Positions 1,611 through 55,733 of a DNA stretch of 64,000 nt are shown in pieces (the stretch's first letter is position 1; each line of letters opens with the position of its first letter). A program made the translations under genes and the position numbers. A model generated the notes under the pieces. That model was not told where the DNA came from, searched no databases, and saw only the letters and a list, made by a program, of their open reading frames with translations. The stretch covers positions 192,001-256,000 of the forward strand of contig CAVVOB010000012.1 in assembly GCA_963749655.1 (NCBI GenBank), written 5' to 3'. The stretch comes from Nitrospirota bacterium (GTDB lineage Bacteria > Nitrospirota > UBA9217).

Positions 1611-1733
1611 AGGCAGAGAGCAGAGAGACCAAGGGCAGTTATGAGTGCTTAGTTTTGAGTTTGTAGTTTTTAGTTTCGAGTCGGAAGATAACAGCGGAAT
1701 AACTAAAAACTCACGACTCACGACTAAAAACTG
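1611..1733. repeat. Heptamer-periodic inverted repeat
   Basis: gcagaga x2, then agttttgagtttgtagtttttagtt ... aactaaaaactcacgactcacgactaaaaact. Confidence 0.75.
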
Positions 1734-5767: not shown

Positions 5768-5804
5768 TCCCCTTCACTCGGCCCTCTCCCTTGGGGAGAG
5801 GGAG
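5768..5804. repeat. CCCTCTCCC/GGGAGAGGG hairpin element
   Basis: cccttcactcggCCCTCTCCCttgGGGAGAGGGag followed by a T-run. Confidence 0.65.
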
Positions 5805-9929: not shown

Positions 9930-10011
9930 CAGCCGAGAGTTGGGAACGTCAAAGACTGTTTAACCGCGGAGGACGCAGAGAAAGCGGATGAGAAAAAACA
10001 GGAGGCATGCC

Positions 10012-18456: not shown

Positions 18457-21416
18457 GTGTTTTCTCCCTGGGTCCTGCTTGCTGTAATACTTTCCTATCT
18501 CCTGCTCCTCTTTTCGGTCGCCTATTTCGCCGAACGCAAGGAGGCGCAGGGCAGGAGCCTCGTCTCCAATCCCTACATCTATTCGCTCTCCCTTGCCGTA
18601 TACTGCACCTCCTGGACGTTCTACGGCAGCGTGGGCAAGGCCGCCAATTCGGGCCTGAGCTTTCTCACGATCTATATCGGACCGACGCTCATGGCGGCGC
18701 TCTGGTGGGTCGTCCTGCGCAAGATCGTCCTATCGCGAAGGAGAACCGGATCACCACGATCTCGGACTTCATCTCGTCGCGCTACGGAAAGTCCCTCGGC
18801 CTGTCGGTCCTGGTCACGATCGTGGCGGTCGTCGGCATCACGCCCTATCTCGGGCTCCAGCTCAAGGCCATCATGACCGCCTTTGCCCTGCTCTCGGGGA
18901 GGTCCCAGGGCAGCCACCTGGCAGGCTGGTTCACGGGCTGGTTCATCTCGCTGCTGCTCGGGCATCTTCGCCGTCATCTTCGGAGCGCGAAGGCTCGATG
19001 CGTCGGAGCGCCACGGCGGCCTGGTCTTTGCCGTGGCCTTCGAGTCGGCGATCAAGCTGGTCGCGTTTCTGCTCGTCGGGGTCTTCGTGACCTACGGGCT
19101 CTTCAACGGGTTCGGCGACATCTTCGGAGGATCGCCGCGGGGCCCTACGCCCCGCTCATGAAGATCGGCGACGGGTCTCCGGTCAGCTTTCTGGAATGGA
19201 CCTCGCTCACCTTTCTGTCCATGATGGCCATCCTGTTCCTGCCCCGCCAGTTCCATGTGGCGGTCGTGGAAAACTATTCGGTGGACCACATCAAGAAGGC
19301 CATGTGGCTGTTTCCGCTGTATCTGTTCCTGATCAACATCTTCGTGCTTCCCATCGCCTACGGCGGGCTGCTGCTGGGCGACATCCCGTCCACGGCCGAC
19401 TATTTCGTGCTGACCATCCCCATGCACCACGGCCACCCGCTCCTGGCGCTCATCGTGTTCATCGGCGGGTTCTCGGCGGCAACGGCCATGATCATCGTGG
19501 AATCGGTCGCGCTTAGCACCATGGTGATGAACAGCTTCGTCATGCCGACGTTCTGGGACCTTCCGCCGTTCAAGAATTTTCATGCCGTGATGCTGAACAT
19601 CAAGCGGATGGTCATCCTGGGGTGCGTGTTCCTGGGCTATATTTTCGCCGTGTACATCGGCGATTATTACAGCCTCGTGGACATCGGGCTCAAGTCCTTC
19701 GAAGCGGTCACGATCTTCGCGCCGTCCATCCTGCTCGGCCTCTACTGGAAGGGCGGCAACAAGAAGGGGGCCATCGCCGGCATCGTCGCCGGGTTCAGCG
19801 TCTGGATCTATACGCTGCTGATCCCGGCGCTCATGCGCGCCGGCATCATCCAGCAGGGCGATCTCCTGGAGGCGATCGTCAGGTCAACGCTGCTGAATCC
19901 CACGGCGCTCTTCGGACTCGAAGGCCTCGACCGCTGGAGCCATTCCCTGTTCTGGGGGCTGTTGCTGAACCTGCTCTTCTATGTGGGCGTGTCGCTCTTC
20001 ACGAGGCAGTCCGATGCCGAGACGCACCAGGCCATCATTTTCGTCGATTCCTTTTCACCGCTCCAGTTCTCCGCAGACCCAGCGGCCGCTGGACATCGGC
20101 GAGATCGAGACATGCTCGGCCAGTATATCGGGCCCGGCGAAGCGCGCGAGCGTGGACGAGTTTTCTCAGATACAACGGACTGGAGCGCACAGAGCCTGTC
20201 CGGCGAGTGGCTGCTGAAGCTCCGGCAGGAGGCGGAGCGGATCCTTTCGGGCGCGCTGGGGCCGTCGATCAGCACGCTGGTGTTCCAGGACAAGACGGTC
20301 CTGACGCATGAAGAGGCGCTGCGGGTCTCGAAATCGATCCGGCAGATCTCGCGGAGCCTGCAGATTGTCGCGGCAGGAGCTTGCCGAGGCGAACCGGCAG
20401 CTCGCCATGCTCAAGGAGTTCAGCGAGAACATCATCGAAAGCCTTCCCCTCGGCGTGGCGACGCTCGATGAATCGCTGCGCGTCAAGTACTGGAACAGCG
20501 GCATGGAGCTGATCACGGGCGTGGAAAAGTCGGATGCCATGAACCGGGACGCCGCCAGCTGCTCACCTGCCTCGAGCCGCGCCTCTTCAGCCCCACGGTG
20601 CATGAGGGCGAGATCACCTGCCGAAGGAACTTCGATCCCCAGATCATCCTGAAGGGGAACCTGAGCAAGCTCACCGGCGCCCACAAAGGGTATGTGCTCG
20701 TGCTCGAGGACATCACCGAGAAGAAGAAGATCGAGGAGGAGCTGTTCCGGGCGACCAAGCACGCCAGCGTGGGCCGGCTCGCCGCGGGCGTGGCCCACGA
20801 GATCGGCAACCCCCTTGCCTCCATCTCGTCGCTGGTGCAGGAGCTCCAGACCGAGGAGCTGACGTCCTTTGTCCGGGAGTCGCTCACCACGATCAACGAG
20901 CATGTGCACCGCATCGCGCGGATCGTGCGGAACCTCGGCGATTTCGCCCGGCTCTATCCGCGCCAGAAAATGCCGACGAGCCTCCGGGACATCCTGGAGA
21001 ACACGCTGAACCTGGTGCGGTACGACAGGAAGTTCAAAAAGATCGAGATCCGCACGGACGTGCAGGATACGCCGCCGCTCAAGATCGATCCCGGACCAGA
21101 TCCAGCAGGTGTTCCTGAACCTGATCCTGAACGCCCGCGACGCCATGCCCGACGGCGGAAGCCTCGACATCGTCCATCGGGCAGACCGACGGCCAGGTGC
21201 CGGATGGTCTTCGCCGACACCGGGACCGGCATCGAGACGGAGGTGAAGGACAAGGTCTTCGACCCCTTCTTCAGCACCAAGGGGCCGACCAAGGGCACGG
21301 GCCTGGGCCTCTCGATCTGCTACAGCATCATCAAGGACCACGGCGGCACGATCGAGATCGATTCGGAAAAGGACAAGGGGACGAAGTTCATTATCACGAT
21401 TCCGGTGGAAGCGTAG
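18457..21416 (+). CDS. Sodium:solute symporter-STAC-PAS-histidine kinase, CbrA/CrbS-like (several frameshifts)
   Basis: [60 protein letters not shown]...GTGLGL. Confidence 0.88.
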
Positions 21417-21420
21417 ACGC

Positions 21421-21880
21421 TATCCGCAGATTACGCAGATTTCCAGATAGCTGACAAATATGCAGGAGCTGGCAAAAGAAATGGTCGAGGCGACAAAAAA
21501 TGATCCGAGGACTTATGCGGTCATTGGGGCCGCCATGGAAGTCCATCAACAACTAGGATGCGGGTTCCTGGAAGGTGTATATCAAGAGGCGTTTGCACTG
21601 GAGTTGGCGGCAAAAGGCATCCCTTTTCAATCCGAAATGGAATTGCCGATTTCTTATAAGAGTAAGAGGCTTCGTACATCCTATCGTGTCGACTTTATCT
21701 GCTATGATTCTGTCATCGTCGAGCTTAAGGCTTTAGCAAAACTGTCCAAAACGGAAGAGGCTCAAATAATTAATTACTTGAAAGCGACTGGCTTTCCAAT
21801 AGGCCTTCTCATAAATTTTGGTTCCACATCGCTTGAATACCGTCGTTTTGCGTTTTCTCACTCTGCGGAATCTGCGGATA
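21421..21880. mobile_element. Putative GxxExxY element bounded by 20-bp inverted repeats
   Basis: TATCCGCAGATTACGCAGAT (21421-21440) against the reverse complement of 21861-21880, TATCCGCAGATTCCGCAGAG (18/20); lower GC; lies between kinase and regulator. Confidence 0.6.
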
Positions 21881-21894
21881 AATATATACAATAG
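21460..21894 (+). CDS. GxxExxY protein (PD-(D/E)XK nuclease fold)
   Basis: GAAMEVH..LGCGFLEGVYQE, YRVDF, VELKA, AQIINYLKATG, GLLINFG; start may be 21481. Confidence 0.92.
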   Translation: MQELAKEMVEATKNDPRTYAVIGAAMEVHQQLGCGFLEGVYQEAFALELAAKGIPFQSEMELPISYKSKRLRTSYRVDFICYDSVIVELKALAKLSKTEEAQIINYLKATGFPIGLLINFGSTSLEYRRFAFSHSAESADKYIQ

Positions 21895-21902
21895 AGGTTT
21901 CA

Positions 21903-23264
21903 ATGTCCAAAAGCATCTTGATCGTGGAAGACGAAGAGACGCTGCGGGAGTCCATCAAGCGGATCTTCACCAAGGAAGGCTACGCCGTGGAAGGGGCGGA
22001 GTCGGCGGAGAAGGGCTGGAGCTGCTGGGCACGAACAGTCTACGACGTGATCATCTCGGACATCATCCTGCCGGGCATGGACGGCATCGAGATGCTCACC
22101 AAGGTGCGGGAGCAGATCCCGGACCAGATCGTCATCGTCGTCACCGCCTATGCGTCGCTCGATACGTCGGTCAAGGCGCTCCGGGCCGGCGCCTACGACT
22201 ACATCATGAAGCCGATCATCCACGAGGAGATCAAGCAGATCGTCCGGAACGCGCTCCGCCAGAAGAGCCTCCAGACCGAGAACGTGCTGCTCAAGCGGGA
22301 GATCGGGAAGGACTACGATTTCAGCAGCATCATCGGCGAGAGCGCCGGCGCTCAAGACCATCTCGACGAGGTCAAGAAGGTCACGGACACCAAGAGCAGC
22401 GTGCTGCTCCTCGGCGAGACCGGCACGGGCAAGGAGCTCTTTGCGCGGGTCATCCACCACAACAGCTCCCGGCGCGACATGCCCTTTGTCCCGATCAACT
22501 GCTCCGCGATCCCCGAGAACCTGCTCGAGACCGAGCTCTTCGGCCACGTGCGCGGCGCCTTTACCGGCGCCGTGGCGACCAAGAAGGGCATCCTCGAGGA
22601 CGCCGAGGGCGGCACCGTGTTCCTCGACGAGATCGGCGACATGAGCCTGGCGCTCCAGGCCAAGCTGCTCCGCGTGATCGAGGACCAGGTGATCCGGCCC
22701 GTGGGCAGCACCAAGGGCACCAAGGTGGACATCCGGTTCATCACGGCGACGAACAAGGACCTGAAGTCCGCGGTCAAGACGGAGCGCGTTCCGCGAGGAC
22801 CTCTACTACCGCATCAATGTCATCTCGCTCCAGATCCCGCCGCTCCGGGAACGGAAGGAAGACATCCGCGTCGCTGGTGCAGCACTACCTGGCAGATATG
22901 CCCAGGAGATGGGCAGGCAGGTCAAGGAGCTCTCCCCCGAAGCCATGGATCTCATGATGAACTACGAGTGGGCCGGGAACGTGCGCGAGCTCCAGAACGT
23001 CATCGAGCGGGCCATCCTCATTTCCGACGGCGACGTCATCAGGCCGGAGCATCTGCCCGGCGGCGTGACGGCCGGGATCGACGTTCGAGCTCGAGTCCTT
23101 CGACCAGAAGCTTTCGATCGAGGACTACACCAAGGCCTTCATCCTGCGCTACCAGGCCGAGTTCAACGAACAGCAGCTCGCCGATCATGCTCGGGATCAC
23201 CCGGAAATCGCTCTGGGAGAAGCGGAAGAAATGGGGGATCCCGAAAGAGCGGCAGGTCACATAG
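21903..23264 (+). CDS. Sigma-54-dependent response regulator, CbrB/NtrC-like (frameshifts at about 22790-23190)
   Basis: REC domain, GETGTGKE, GAFTGA, FLDEIG, WAGNVREL, C-terminal LGITRKSLWEKRKKWGI. Confidence 0.9.
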   Translation: MSKSILIVEDEETLRESIKRIFTKEGYAVEGAESAEKGWSCWARTVYDVIISDIILPGMDGIEMLTKVREQIPDQIVIVVTAYASLDTSVKALRAGAYDYIMKPIIHEEIKQIVRNALRQKSLQTENVLLKREIGKDYDFSSIIGESAGAQDHLDEVKKVTDTKSSVLLLGETGTGKELFARVIHHNSSRRDMPFVPINCSAIPENLLETELFGHVRGAFTGAVATKKGILEDAEGGTVFLDEIGDMSLALQAKLLRVIEDQVIRPVGSTKGTKVDIRFITATNKDLKSAVKTERVPRGPLLPHQCHLAPDPAAPGTEGRHPRRWCSTTWQICPGDGQAGQGALPRSHGSHDELRVGRERARAPERHRAGHPHFRRRRHQAGASARRRDGRDRRSSSSPSTRSFRSRTTPRPSSCATRPSSTNSSSPIMLGITRKSLWEKRKKWGIPKERQVT

Positions 23265-23342
23265 CTTCAGCCATCCGCTCTGTCCCTGATACAGAAAACC
23301 ACAGAACTTGTGTTTCTCTTTGCGCGACATATCCTTTCCCTT

Positions 23343-23619
23343 AAACCTGGAAGGGCAGTTGGAACCACAGATAAACACGGATGAACGCAGATGAAAAAAG
23401 GTATACGAGTGCTTCAAGGATTTGCATTAACGCTCTGACTTATCTGTGTCTATCAGTGTTCATCCATGGTTAATTGTTCTTCAGTCCATCAAAAACCTGG
23501 AAGGGCAGATGGAACCACAGATAAACACGGATGAACGCAGATGAAAAAATGCATACGAGTATTAACGCGCTTATTTATCCGTGTCTATCAGTGTTCATCC
23601 GTGGTTAATTGTTCTTCAG
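23343..23619. repeat. Two tandem copies of a palindromic element with 10-mer periodic arms
   Basis: aaacctggaagggcag..ggAACCACAGATAAACACGGATGAACGCAGAT ... ATC(t/c)GTGTCTATCAGTGTTCATCC(a/g)TGGTTaattgttcttcag, present twice. Confidence 0.9.
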
Positions 23620-27972: not shown

Positions 27973-28069
27973 AGCCGGCAACGGTCGTTTCTCCTATTCT
28001 TTTTTCCCATTTTCCCCTTTTTCTGCGTTCATCTGCGTCATCTTCGGACAATATGATGAACGGTTTTCC

Positions 28070-35818: not shown

Positions 35819-35927
35819 TCGCGCAAAGCCGCAAAGGCGCCAAGAAAGGCGCAAAGAGAGGCTCAGGCTTCTGGTTTTAAACCATAGACTTAAAGGTTTT
35901 CTTTGCGTCCTTCGCGTCTTCGCGGTT
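35819..35927. repeat. Palindromic element with 9-mer periodic arms
   Basis: cgcgcaaagccgcaaaggcgccaagaaaggcgcaaag ... ctttgcgtccttcgcgtcttcgcggtt. Confidence 0.8.
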
Positions 35928-37317: not shown

Positions 37318-37450
37318 AGAACATTCCGGTTGGGGAGAGCGGAACGAAGTCCGACAGAATTCATTGCTGTTCCTGATTACTTTTATGCAGGTCGCGACGA
37401 TGTAGACTGGTCTCATGATTTGCCTTTCCCCTTGTATTGCAGCTTAGCTT

Positions 37451-37543
37451 GTAGGTTGGGCTGAACGCTTTACATGTAAAGCCCAACGCATCATGATTGA
37501 GAAATGTTGGGCAGTGTGGAGCTTTTTGCCCAAACTACGAACT
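37451..37543. repeat. REPIN-like element, copy 2
   Basis: Near-identical to 35661-35754. Confidence 0.9.
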
Positions 37544-37801
37544 GATCTTTAAAGTGAGTTTATTGCCGGTTATTTGATATGTCCCACTATAGAAATCACC
37601 ACCTTCGTAATTTGAATCTGTTTTAAAAGTGTTGTCTGGTGTAAATTTGAAATACAAGCCTAATTCGCCTATATCCGGCCCCCATACATTGTTCATTAGA
37701 TAATTCTTCGTCAGCACATCTGCTGCGCTGCCAACTTTCGAAGAAATCACCGACACAAACATCGCAAGGATCAAAAATAAAAAATTTGTAGTTCTAGCCA
37801 T
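37535..37801 (-). CDS. Low-GC secreted protein, probably truncated
   Basis: GGAGAGG RBS and signal peptide; the stop codon lies inside the repeat end. Confidence 0.6.
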   Translation of the reverse strand: MARTTNFLFLILAMFVSVISSKVGSAADVLTKNYLMNNVWGPDIGELGLYFKFTPDNTFKTDSNYEGGDFYSGTYQITGNKLTLKISS

Positions 37802-37841
37802 GACCTCTCCCTTACAAAATTAACAAAATAACTGGTAACTT

Positions 37842-37934
37842 GTAGGTTGGGCTGAACGCCTTACATGTGAAGCCCAACGCATCATGATTGAGAAATGTTG
37901 GGCAGTGTGGAGCTTTTTGCCCAACCTACGAACT
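37842..37934. repeat. REPIN-like element, copy 3
   Basis: Near-identical to copy 2. Confidence 0.9.
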
Positions 37935-38135
37935 TCACGCTGCAGGTCGGGTCGCGTTTGTGACCCGACAGCTGCTCTGAAAGCCTGAACCGGCAAAGAA
38001 GGGAAAATATTTTACCTCCACTTTACACTCTTCTCTTTACTTTAACGAACGTGGAAGTCGGCGAGCTTGCGAATTAAGCGCAGAGGAAGTGGTTCATCCA
38101 AAAGAAACTGGATTCTGCCCTTCGAGATGTTTCGC

Positions 38136-38208: not shown

Positions 38209-38211
38209 CTG

Positions 38212-38319
38212 GTAGGTCGGGTAGAGCGAAGCGAAACCCGACATTTTCAGTTCATTATCTGTGCGAATATACTAGCATACAGGCGTCGGGTTTCACAAAA
38301 AACGTTCTACTCGACATAC
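38212..38319. repeat. REPIN-like element, GTAGGTCGGG variant
   Basis: gtaggtcgggtagagcgaagcgaaacccgac ... gtcgggtttc...tactcgacatac. Confidence 0.75.
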
Positions 38320-38360
38320 CCGGCTACCTCATACAAACCGTCACAAGGCCGCTGCCCCAA

Positions 38361-45103: not shown

Positions 45104-45185
45104 GAACCACGGATGAACACGGTTTAATAACCTTGTAATTCAATGAAAGAAGTCATCCGTGTCTATCCGTGTTAATCCGTGGTTA
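45104..45185. repeat. 10-mer periodic palindromic element, preceded by GCGGAAT heptamers at about 45032
   Basis: aaccacggatgaacacgg ... atccgtgtctatccgtgttaatccgtggtt. Confidence 0.85.
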
Positions 45186-51766: not shown

Positions 51767-54700
51767 CTACGGTCCGGCAATGCTGTTGTATATGCCCTTT
51801 GTTTCCTCTGAGGGCTCGACCCCGAAGGCTGCCGACAGCGCCGTCTTGCAGCGGCGATAAACCTTCATGACCTCCGCCCGTGAACCCGCCTGCTGATGAC
51901 AGAGCATGAGATTCTGATAAAATTCTTCCGCCACTTCATCCACTTCCAGCCCCCGTTCATAGCACTCGATCGCTTTGCGGATAGCTGATTGCCGGTTTCG
52001 GATTGCCGCGTGCGCGTTGTCTTCCCCTTTCGAGCTACCCTGCTCCAGCCAGTAAGCGCCGAGCGTGCTCACCGCGCGGAGATACTTGCTGCGCAGACGC
52101 TCCCTGGCCGACATTGTCCACGGTTTTTCTTCGTCTGCCTCCAGGAAATGGCCGCGATAGAGCCGGAGCGCTCTTTCGAGCTGCTGCAGCACTTCGGATT
52201 TCGGAATCCGGACAGTGGATGTATGCCCGCAGTCCCTTGCCTCTGCTTTGTTTGTATATTCCGCATTCCGCAATACGCATTCCGCAAATTCGAGCTGCTT
52301 CTCGAAGGCCCATGCGTCCACCCGGCAAAATCGCCGATCAAGACTCAGTCTCCCCTCGCGGAGCCGGGTCACGTCGTCATTCCCCAGCAGCTGCCGCAGG
52401 CGGTGGAGCGTGGTCTTGAATGAAATGCGGGCGGCGTCTCCCTCCGCCTCGGGCCAGAGCGCGTCGATGATGCGCTCTTCGGATACATCGCGACCGCCGA
52501 ACGCGATGACCGCCTTCAGCATCTCCAGGGGCTTCTTCTGGACCTTGCCGCTGAAGGAAACCGGCTCGTCCCGCAGCAGGAGCCTGAATTCGCCAAGCGT
52601 CTCGATCCTTACCGGCCAGGGCCAGCTTTCAATGTGGAGGGGCGGCTCTTCGGGAACGAGATTGCGCTTGCGGATCAGATCCCGCACGAATTCCGTTTCG
52701 ATCCCGGCTTCGAGCGCCTTCATGCACAGGGGGGTTATCTCCTGTGAAATCCAGAGGGTATAATTGAACTGGGCGAACCCCTTTTTTCGTCCCAGCGCCA
52801 TGGCGTCGCGCAAACGGCGCATACCGGCCGCTTCCCGATGCTCTGCGAAATCCGTGCCCGCCTCTGAGAGGAGGCAGAAAAATTCAACGAGATCGCTTTT
52901 CACGTCCTGCCCGATCCGGCGGCATGCGGCGGTCTGCGCCCTGGCCTGCGCATGCTTTCCTGTCGCGCGCAGCAAATGCGCCAAAGCGAGCCCGCTCTTG
53001 ACCTGGGCGCCCAGGAAGCCGATCCGCTGCGCGAGATCGTTCGCCGTCGCGGCGACAGACAGGGCGCGGGGAATGTCGCCTTCATGCGCGTAGTGGCAGG
53101 CCAGCATGAGGTGATAGTAGAACTTGTCGAGAGGGCGGCCCTGTTCCAGCGCAGAGGACATGGTTTCCAGGAGCTTCTCGGATTCGGCGAGGTTCCCCGA
53201 GGAAAGAGAAGCGCATACGCCCATGGTGAGGATCAGGTAATCCCAGCGGTGGACGCCGCTTTCCCTCGATATCTTCAATCCTTCATGCATGAGCGACATG
53301 CACCGGTCGTAGGAACAGACCGCCCATGCGAACCAGGCGTCCGCCATCTTCCCCATGCACTGCGCAAGCGGCGACACGCTGCGGCTCGACGCCAGCAAGC
53401 GCCTGACGGCTCCCAGGGCATGCTCGCACATCGTCCGGTCTCCCGCCTGGATGAAATGGGTGAACAGATAGTATCCCGTCAGCAGCCGCAGGCTCGGGTC
53501 TGCGGCGCCGTCGTTGAGAAGCGCCAGCGCCTTTTCCTTCCACAGGTCGAAGGACGGGTGCCGCGGTTGGCGGAGTGAAAGCGCCATGAAGATGCGGCTC
53601 GTGACATGTCCCTCCGTCTGCGGGGACGGGAACAGGGGGTATTCCTTCATCAGATCGCCGAGCAGCGCGATCCAGGCGTCCAGCTGGCCGAGGTCCCCCA
53701 ATTCCTGGATGATGGACTCCGTGACGCCAGACCAGGCGAGAAAGATCCCGAGGCGTCGCGGCGCTTTTTGAAAAGCTCGAAGGCTTTTTCAAAGCATCGA
53801 CGTCCCTCCCGAAGGTCGAAGGGCATCCTGCACACGCCCAACCAGTACGTCATCCACGGCTCTCCGCCGATGACCTCGTCGGGAACGGACGTGAGGTGCG
53901 CCTCGAGCGCACGGCTCCTTCCCTGGGACACCAGGACCCGTGCGATCGCAAGGACCGTCGGTACAAAGCTCTTCCACGCTCCCGCCAGCCGGTACAGTTC
54001 CACCGCGTCCTCGGGCTGTCCTTCACGCTCGAGGAGCTTCCCTGCCTTTTGGAGGAGCTCCTCTATCTGCTCGGTGGAATAGGTCTGCCGCGCCCTGGCC
54101 TGGAGGAATTCCCTGAAGAGGGGGTGGTACTGATATACCGGATGGGGGAGGGAGCGCTGCTCCGTGAAAAAGTGGTTGCGGCTGAGCGTTGCAAGAACGG
54201 CTCCCGCGTCATCCCTGCCTGTCAGGGCCGACGCCGAGGGAGGAAAAATGCGCGGCAGGAAGGCGGTTTTGAGAAGGAAGGACCGTGTTTCCGGGTCCGT
54301 CTTTTCGAACAGCTCGGTTGCAAAGTAGTCGAAGAACTCCTGGGGGTTGAAACGGTCCATATCCATGGGAGCTCCGGCGAGCGTCCTCATCCGTTCCATC
54401 AGAAGCATGAGGCCTGCCGCCCAGCCCAGGGTCGTCTGCTGAATGCGGGTCAGAAGCTCCACCTTGAGCCCGCTCCGGCGGCCGGACCTGAAGAGCGCCC
54501 CGGTCTCGTTCATGTCGAACTTGAGATCCTCCCATCCGATGCCGTGGACCTTATTGTAGGTCTGCAGGACCGCCAGTGCAGGCGGAGGCGCGCCGCGGCT
54601 CATGATCACGACCGAGATGCCCTCGGGAACGACGGACAGCGCTTCGCGGATCATGTCATGAAAGGGAGCGTCGTCGGCGATATGGTGATAATTGTCGAGA

Positions 54701-55083: not shown

Positions 55084-55317
55084 CGCAACTCACCTGCATA
55101 CCAGCTTGAACATGCCTGTTTGGACAGGACGCCATTACGGGTAAAGCGAAGAAGCGACTCTAATGATGGGGATCTTTGGTGCACTCAAGAACGGTTGAAG
55201 CGGCTCTCTATATGAATACTATACCCAGATTGTTTACTGGTGGCAACATTTTTTTGCAGAAAAGAGCATAGCGATTTAATCCTTAGGCATACATCGATAA
55301 ACCTGAAAAGAGCATGT

Positions 55318-55508
55318 AACCACGGATTAACACGGATAAACACGGGCAGGCTTCTGGGCTGCTTCAGGCTTGCATCGTGAATCACTCGGTAAGGTCTGGT
55401 TCAATCAGCATGATCGAACCAGCGAAAAAAACGAAGAGCTGTTTGGTTGAACCTGTCTGTGAGTAAGAGTCATTGTTCAAGAATCTTAACCGTGTTCATC
55501 CGTGGTTA
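55318..55508. repeat. 10-mer periodic palindromic element with a nested hairpin
   Basis: aaccacggattaacacggataaacacgg ... aaccgtgttcatccgtggtt. Confidence 0.8.
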
Positions 55509-55733
55509 CAATTACTGTCTTTCTTTTCAGGTGTCGGCCGGACATTACCCCGTCATCCGTCCTCGCGAACTTCTGTTAGTTAGTTTTTCCTGAAATGCGC
55601 TCTTATTGTTTCTGCCTGCCACGTGTATTTCCCATCTTGAAACATATCTTCTCACACTCTTGCTATAATTGAACAGGAAAGAAGGCGAACCTTAGATCAA
55701 CCTTAAATGGTCCGAATAGGGGGAGCGGCCTTC

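Follow-up and report, generated by a model that had tools for sequence, protein, structure and literature searches.

The closest described counterparts of the element reported here are the REPtrons (REPIN-RAYT systems), which consist of a small enzyme gene with inverted-repeat flanks and of dispersed, gene-less hairpin doublets (PMC3116915). As described in the sections of the literature drawn on here, the type of repeat is matched to the group of enzyme, and RAYT genes are inherited mostly vertically, are rare on plasmids, and lack near-identical duplicates (bioRxiv 10.1101/2021.07.10.451892; PMC5581495). The enzyme of a REPtron is an HUH (Y1) tyrosine transposase, and the repeats are self-palindromic and carry GTAG or CGTC tags. 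TIRtrons, which are associated with CGTC repeats and occur in Acidobacteria, consist of a gene set between terminal inverted repeats, and these repeats also occur as dispersed families, some of them in coding regions; TIRtrons encode tyrosine transposases, and the relevant sections of the report mention neither a GxxExxY protein nor periodic arms (PMC3733652). Intervening sequences of 23S rRNA that carry an S23p gene are ~0.45 kb in length, low in GC, bounded by inverted repeats, and contain one small open reading frame; the portion of the report used here presents them as sporadic in distribution and unexplained in mobility (PMC4990558). Rpn/YhgA-like proteins (PF04754/PF12784) are sporadic, multi-copy PD-(D/E)XK nucleases. 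RpnA cuts DNA weakly and non-specifically, and the resulting ends prime synthesis, which provides a precedent for mobility by nicking and template switching; the main text of that report contains neither “palindrom” nor “inverted repeat” (PMC5350276). GxxExxY proteins belong to another Pfam family, PF13366, which one survey lists as of unknown function with multiple transfers (PMC3424549). The name GxxExxY is elsewhere mentioned in passing, near a reverse transcriptase. No published account of repeats linked to GxxExxY genes was found in a search that did not extend to subscription journals, database comments, or supplements.

We analyzed a 64,000-nucleotide stretch of a Nitrospirota contig (the window) in which a GxxExxY gene separates the two genes of a two-component operon. 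The upstream gene (18457–21416, plus strand) encodes a host sensor histidine kinase with a solute-symporter-like N-terminal membrane region that matches TIGR03648 at E=3.5e-8, below the cut-off; the downstream gene (21903–23289, plus strand) encodes a host sigma-54-dependent response regulator. Between them lies the GxxExxY gene (21460–21894, plus strand), whose 144-amino-acid product is assigned a PD-(D/E)XK fold. The left arm (21421–21448, plus strand) contains two full 9-nt units and a degenerate third with the outer end TATCC, and begins 4 bases after the TAG stop codon of the kinase, which ends at 21416. The right arm (21862–21880, minus strand) contains two 9-nt units in inverted orientation and is located within the 3′ end of the GxxExxY gene. 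The ATG of the regulator at 21903 is 8 bases past the end of the GxxExxY reading frame at 21894. Several single-base frameshifts interrupt the kinase and regulator genes (18457–23289), and further genes of the window are affected likewise. Those in the kinase and regulator are probably read errors, because a related locus, L001, carries intact orthologues of both (981 and 450 amino acids, respectively; the regulators are 88% identical over the part compared). L001 is labeled Betaproteobacteria although it carries the operon of the window, and the label looks misbinned.

A first-pass annotation of this DNA had described a gene of lower GC content between kinase and regulator, bounded by 20-bp inverted arms (18/20) of 9-nt units, with the right arm translated as the tail of the protein. 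Our analysis bears out each of these points. The GC content of the gene is 0.44 against 0.575 for the window. The arms at 21421–21439 and 21862–21880 are complementary at 18/19 positions, or at 18/20 with one base more, and the codons of the right arm specify SAESAD within the tail H-SAESADK-YIQ. GC at third codon positions (GC3) is 0.45 in the gene, compared with 0.95 in the adjoining segments; among related loci with same-strand neighbors, old sites included, GC3 of the GxxExxY gene was below that of the neighbors in 73 of 76. Synonymous change was also faster in the gene than in the neighbors, but we did not use this comparison, which is confounded by the neighbors’ high GC3.

A scan of the GTDB collection yielded 137 relatives, the best 80 of which, mostly 50–70% identical to the query, were kept as loci. 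The scan was built on six query peptides and thus samples the query’s part of the family rather than all of it; for comparison, 17,729 representatives at 50% identity match the family at E 0.001, and a search of E. coli DNA gave zero matches. We scored inverted repeats between the flanks of the 75 testable loci (the 80 minus five with short flanks) and observed scores of at least 12 in 62 of them, as opposed to 6 of 375 control placements drawn at random from these loci. The score of the window arms, 16, was reached by 2 of the 375 control placements. Exactly one arm is present per side in 40 of the 80 loci (the best 80 of 137 relatives), and most of the remaining loci show additional arms, or an entire hairpin, on at least one side. 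More distant, plasmid-borne members (n=8; 32–50% identity) showed clear inverted arms of a related type in three cases, a single-unit repeat with a score of 11 in one, and scores of 9–10 in four. Arms are thus usual among members close to the query; among more distant members they are common but not universal. The expectation that other GxxExxY genes carry periodic inverted arms is therefore upheld by this flank survey, and so is the view of gene and arms as a unit, which recurs across phyla and has gene-less hairpin partners. We conclude that the feature is real and widespread and apparently represents an undescribed family of slow-moving mobile DNA that has no recognized transposase. Two of the loci, L059 (Bacteroidota) and L060 (Bacillota), have near-identical genes and flanks, and their labels look misbinned.

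Each arm is built from a 9-nt unit that comprises an RCAGAT core plus 3 nt. Successive cores in the related loci are spaced by 9 nt in 189 of 227 instances and by 10 nt in 28, and the outer end is constant, reading (T/A)ATCC in the consensus of 62 left arms. The 9-nt pattern has three matches in the window (0.18 expected), two of which are exact and correspond to the arms themselves. With a period of 9 nt, the reading frame survives the gain or loss of units, in keeping with the occurrence of in-frame copies. Arm-derived C-terminal tails such as SAKSA are present in 83 of 120 close homologues; such tails (SAKSA, PQITQ) account for the ragged ends of GxxExxY proteins in annotations. The arms fall into two classes, A (CAGAT core) and B (CTAAG/CGAAG core). 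In a tree of 81 proteins, class B arms are confined to one clade that spans phyla (15/15; branch support 99/88), and phylum labels require 37 changes; the tree is based on few alignment columns and leaves many forks unresolved, and its phylum names were taken from MAG titles that may be misbinned. The match between arm class and protein clade amounts to a single change on the tree, which shows linkage rather than co-evolution and would be expected from mere linkage. Covariation between left and right arms was 403 compared with 345 +/- 7.5, and element-specific co-evolution of the two arms was rejected because most of the signal is explained by locus-wide similarity, with arms elsewhere in a locus matching nearly as well (10.7 vs 10.0 of 14, n=11). 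One interval contains class A in one genome (L041) and class B in another (L063; 57% identity).

The protein is assigned to its family by TIGR04256 (E=3e-43; 146.7 bits, cut-off 35) and PF13366 (PDDEXK_3; E=3e-41; 140.8 bits, cut-off 22). These were its only matches in Pfam and NCBIfam, which agrees with the earlier claim that no classical transposase is involved: no DDE, HUH, serine, or tyrosine recombinase family was matched. Rpn/YhgA-like families were not among the Pfam matches at E 0.001, and proteins of that group are about twice the size of GxxExxY proteins. Putative catalytic residues in the window protein are E38, D78, E88, and K90, accompanied by a Q102-xxx-Y106 motif; across 90 sequences, E38, D78, K90, Q102, and Y106 are invariant and E88 is nearly so, with the conservation of QxxxY in the loci inflated by the scan pattern. 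QxxxY marks RecB/Cas4-like nucleases. Structure prediction was confident (pLDDT 84.7), and the top fold matches of the model are members of the PD-(D/E)XK superfamily, among them Cas4, Hjc, and restriction-like proteins, with which it shares the core; these matches are generic, with a best Z of 7.6 and no standout. As modeled, the protein combines the core fold with the acidic residues and ExK and so has the attributes of the PD-(D/E)XK superfamily. Cas4/RecB-like and Hjc-like proteins (SSO0001, 4ic1; Hjc, 1gef) share this core and the arrangement of E, D, ExK, and QxxxY, but are only 11–18% identical (Z 5.9–7.1), and the four-cysteine pattern of Cas4 is absent from the window protein. NucS also appears among the fold matches, as do tRNA splicing endonucleases at Z 5–5.8; no transposase fold is listed among them, which does not exclude one. 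Solved structures include no sequence relative of the protein, and an Atlas search found no look-alike beyond PF13366. Nine natural proteins contain two GxxExxY domains in tandem (P0133, P0150, P0188, P0210, P0236, P0241, P0246, P0260, and P0266). The first domain retains D and ExK and the second has lost both; one of these proteins is predicted to form a compact two-domain unit (pTM 0.77). Their organization suggests that an asymmetric dimer with a single active site, that is, a nickase, would be workable. The arms provide a defined candidate DNA substrate that makes the function of the family testable with a 144-amino-acid protein and a 30-bp oligonucleotide.

Grouping by shared flanks placed 81 copies at ~62 distinct sites. 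Neighbors are unrelated between sites and include nuoD-nuoE, two peptide ABC ATPase genes, imuB-dnaE2, fabD-fabG, and radA with a gene for an FAD protein. The left arm begins 0–20 nt past a same-strand upstream stop codon in 34 of the 53 cases in which both were called, and units are often found directly 3′ of the stop codon in housekeeping operons. These positions corroborate the proposal that insertions occur at gene junctions. Three of the junctions are empty in relatives. At fabD-fabG, Sphingomonas parapaucimobilis carries the gene, and the junction of S. paeninsulae is shorter by 466 bp. The imuB-dnaE2 junction is filled in four Caulobacteraceae and empty, with an ATGA overlap, in two alphaproteobacterial plasmids. 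The junction between radA and the FAD protein gene is filled in Bacteroides finegoldii, empty in Parabacteroides distasonis, where the genes are 13 bp apart, and occupied by an unrelated gene in Phocaeicola massiliensis. No target-site duplication was seen at the junctions examined, where the filled and empty members of each pair belong to different species or genera and do not define the ends at the level of single bases.

Orthologous operons with an empty site had also been named as a check of the first-pass annotation. No empty version of the kinase-regulator operon was found, the regulators on plasmids being at most 46% identical and the kinases at most 41%; a Paracoccus kinase positioned directly before a single-domain regulator was considered as an empty site and discarded as too distant to count. 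L001, the sole orthologous operon found, has the GxxExxY gene at the same junction, which partly bears out, for this site, the syntenic fixation that was to count against the annotation. The two genes are 70% identical and their synonymous sites are saturated, which rules out recent insertion at the window site. The window copy is thus an old resident.

At sites shared between genomes, the GxxExxY genes mostly group together on the tree, which indicates largely vertical inheritance. dN/dS values were 0.01–0.12 in 9 of 10 unsaturated pairs and 0.30 in one near-identical pair; three further pairs were saturated. The highest identity between copies at different sites was 87% (L009 and L022, sister proteins at unrelated sites), and near-identical copies at different sites were not seen in a sample that mostly includes one locus per genome. 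Divergent copies within one genome are exemplified by L008 and L014, which are 79% identical. The gene moves, but rarely, and is retained under selection at its site. The first-pass annotation, whose idea holds in outline, had viewed the window copy as the autonomous form of a minimal mobile element; the old site, the mostly vertical inheritance, the purifying selection, and the lack of near-identical copies in this sample are unlike an active autonomous element. Rare movement combined with selective retention is the pattern of RAYT genes, as far as these are described in the reports cited above, and not the pattern of insertion sequences.

Arms are also found away from the gene, 75 in the 80 loci compared with totals of 13–23 in three shuffles, and many of them form hairpins. 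In the window, the pattern with a 10-nt period has 10 matches (0.32 expected), and four gene-less elements with such arms were delineated. Two hairpins form a tandem pair just 3′ of the regulator gene (23363–23471 and 23513–23606), a third lies 3′ of a dxs-like gene (45105–45184), and the fourth element (55315–55510) has 25-nt inverted arms (92%) that enclose a spacer of 146 nt. Five of six hairpins folded better than shuffles (z −2.5 to −9.2), including the second of the tandem pair (z −2.5) and the one 3′ of the dxs-like gene (z −4.5); the first of the tandem pair folded no better (z −0.7). Because their period is 10 nt and not 9 nt, the gene-less hairpins of the window are a sister subtype rather than copies of the gene’s arms. 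Elsewhere, one site contains a gene-less hairpin in L010 and a GxxExxY gene in L035. A 27-codon hairpin is inserted in frame in the methyltransferase gene of L041 and absent from L063, where the empty site resembles an arm end; this is a single case. Four related Anaerolineae loci carry different repeat families at the same sites, two of them in frame in a membrane-protein gene, and the families that occupy orthologous sites include GTAG-type and CCCTC-type palindromes. We also noticed that orthologous junctions and protein loops in L029, L032, L034, and L036 are filled by repeat families that differ from genome to genome.

These findings point to a family with two forms: a long form, in which arms enclose the GxxExxY gene (~420–550 bp), and a short form, in which two arms surround a non-coding spacer (~60–200 bp). 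The element works like a REPtron with its REPINs, including gene-less, dispersed inverted doublets related to the flanks of the gene, and falls outside that class in its enzyme and its repeats. The protein has a PD-(D/E)XK fold instead of an HUH transposase, and the repeats are tandem 9–10-nt arrays with RCAGAT cores and the outer end (T/A)ATCC instead of tagged palindromes. Unlike REPtrons, the GxxExxY gene occupies many unrelated sites across phyla and hence moves at times. The reading that we favor, and to which we assign about an even chance, is that of a REPtron/REPIN-like, bipartite, slow-moving family in which a PD-(D/E)XK nuclease takes the place of the HUH transposase. The GxxExxY protein, acting as a dimer, would read the 9–10-nt units as tandem double-stranded binding sites and would introduce a nick in or close to an arm, or a target that resembles one. 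Host repair, by template switching or gene conversion from another copy, may then write a hairpin, and rarely the whole gene, into the cut. Copying by repair would leave no target duplication and would allow one repeat family to replace another. Insertions would survive chiefly where they directly follow a stop codon or keep the frame within a tolerant loop, and the gene, once placed, would stay for long periods. If the protein mobilizes hairpins in this way, REPIN-like systems would have a second, unrelated origin, and the family would be a source of in-frame peptide insertions and operon remodeling in Chloroflexota, Acidobacteriota, Planctomycetota, Nitrospirota, and others.

An alternative is that the nuclease is a passenger: the arms would be moved in trans by shared machinery, be it an HUH transposase, host repair, or a reverse transcriptase, with the enclosed genes as cargo that serves, for example, in defense or addiction. 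This alternative gains weight from a second kind of gene. We searched all loci for other small open reading frames bounded by inverted repeats and obtained six candidates, three of which are four-helix-bundle genes (TIGR02436) at operon junctions with arms of 7-nt period (L038:17066–17449, L049:3694–4047, and L075:5263–5616; arm scores 25, 21, and 18); one of these also weakly matches Avd. The arms are thus present around three of four copies, the fourth (L005:3965–4303) being cut by the contig end. These genes do not encode nucleases and share the architecture; therefore, the enclosed protein need not be the mobilizer. The two proteins may each recognize their own arms and draw on one shared host process, or both may be cargo. 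Where sites are fixed, purifying selection is compatible with a benefit to the host, and the different repeat families at orthologous sites suggest shared hot spots, both of which would suit a passenger. Other observations speak against a passenger. Across the 81 sequences scanned, GxxExxY was the only substantial gene directly enclosed by a 9–10-nt arm pair, and arm class tracks protein clade across phyla rather than host phylum. A search with PADLOC 2.0 anti-phage profiles gave a best E of 0.041 with no passing stretch, PHROG returned no match of note, and an IS4/5-type transposase lies beside only one of the loci whose neighbors were scanned. On balance, we consider a passenger cassette unlikely.

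It is conceivable that the nuclease reading extends further, such that GxxExxY is a minimal sequence-specific nickase that drives transposase-free mobile DNA by repair copying and is one of several protein-repeat pairs, including the 7-nt arms with Avd-like proteins, that compete for shared hot spots at junctions and in loops. We put this extension forward tentatively, as possible but doubtful. It would provide a function for two very large families for which none is known and could help to account for the way in which rRNA intervening sequences move; through the parallel four-helix-bundle units, the question also concerns a second large family without a known function. A gene-less hairpin of 7-nt period lies between two ABC transporter genes of the window (1644–1732), with further 7-nt tracts alongside, and is probably a short form of the four-helix-bundle type.

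The resemblance to rRNA intervening sequences raises the question of whether the element acts at the level of RNA, with the arms forming a stem in mRNA that is cut by RNase III or by GxxExxY itself and that processes or uncouples the operon transcript. Intervening sequences are bounded by inverted repeats, can hold a four-helix-bundle gene, and are excised by RNase III, according to the sections of that report used here (PMC4990558); the four-helix-bundle genes in our loci have, in addition, periodic arms. The arms around GxxExxY pair in the predicted RNA fold, both neighbors are on the gene’s strand in 42 of the 62 loci with both neighbors called, and tRNA splicing endonucleases are found among the fold matches. 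The sites differ, however, in that they are mRNA junctions between protein-coding genes and not 23S or 16S rRNA, and the open reading frame has a nuclease fold and periodic arms. Wobble pairs show no strand bias (19 G.U and 19 A.C on the sense strand), which argues against a strand-specific RNA hairpin. The fold of the whole region is no better than shuffles (z −1.2), an Rfam search of the window gave zero matches, and in many loci whole hairpins lie to one side of the gene, or to both, where a single enclosing pair would be expected under this reading. Cutting of mRNA also gives no account of spread. We therefore regard an RNA-level element as distinctly unlikely. An antisense promoter-like site at 21909–21881 was set aside, as one such site was found and 0.7 were expected.

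Very unlikely, in our judgment, is a domesticated repair or anti-palindrome enzyme that resolves hairpins or cruciforms for the host; in that view, the arms that accumulate around the gene and elsewhere would be scars left by the enzyme and not mobile units. The vertical persistence and purifying selection described above would be natural for such an enzyme, and so would the rarity of the gene on plasmids (8 of 72,556 records) and its absence from 50,697 phage records. The fold matches include Hjc and NucS, and some inverted repeats run past the arm consensus (L067 and L005), as template switching would yield. Nevertheless, a housekeeping gene would not be expected to occupy ~62 different sites, to occur patchily across phyla, and to exist in several divergent copies per genome (L008 and L014; three places in one record), and one and the same arm sequence is found in many phyla. 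A classical insertion sequence or MITE family with an unrecognized transposase would explain the terminal inverted repeats with a fixed outer end and the short, non-autonomous copies, but is highly improbable given the absence of target duplications at the junctions examined, of near-identical copies at different sites, and of any DDE, HUH, serine, or tyrosine recombinase match, together with the long residence at fixed sites.

Additional repeats were observed in the window and in related loci. GTAG-tagged, REP-like doublets (37446–37545, 37838–37934, 37942–37972, and 38211–38330) surround a low-GC gene on the minus strand of the window. A CCCTC...GAGGG palindrome is located at 5770–5803, and L036 has a similar repeat at an orthologous hot spot. 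A tandem tract of 7-nt units of the TCCGCAT type lies in a coding region (52260–52288) and has a weak inverted partner at 51974–52002. Single, partnerless arms of related types are positioned at gene junctions (9961–9979, 28022–28050, and ~35900–35925). Finally, an aminotransferase-like open reading frame in L049 (10871–12493) contains many in-frame insertions of periodic repeats and is situated in a region dense in toxin-antitoxin-like genes and arms.
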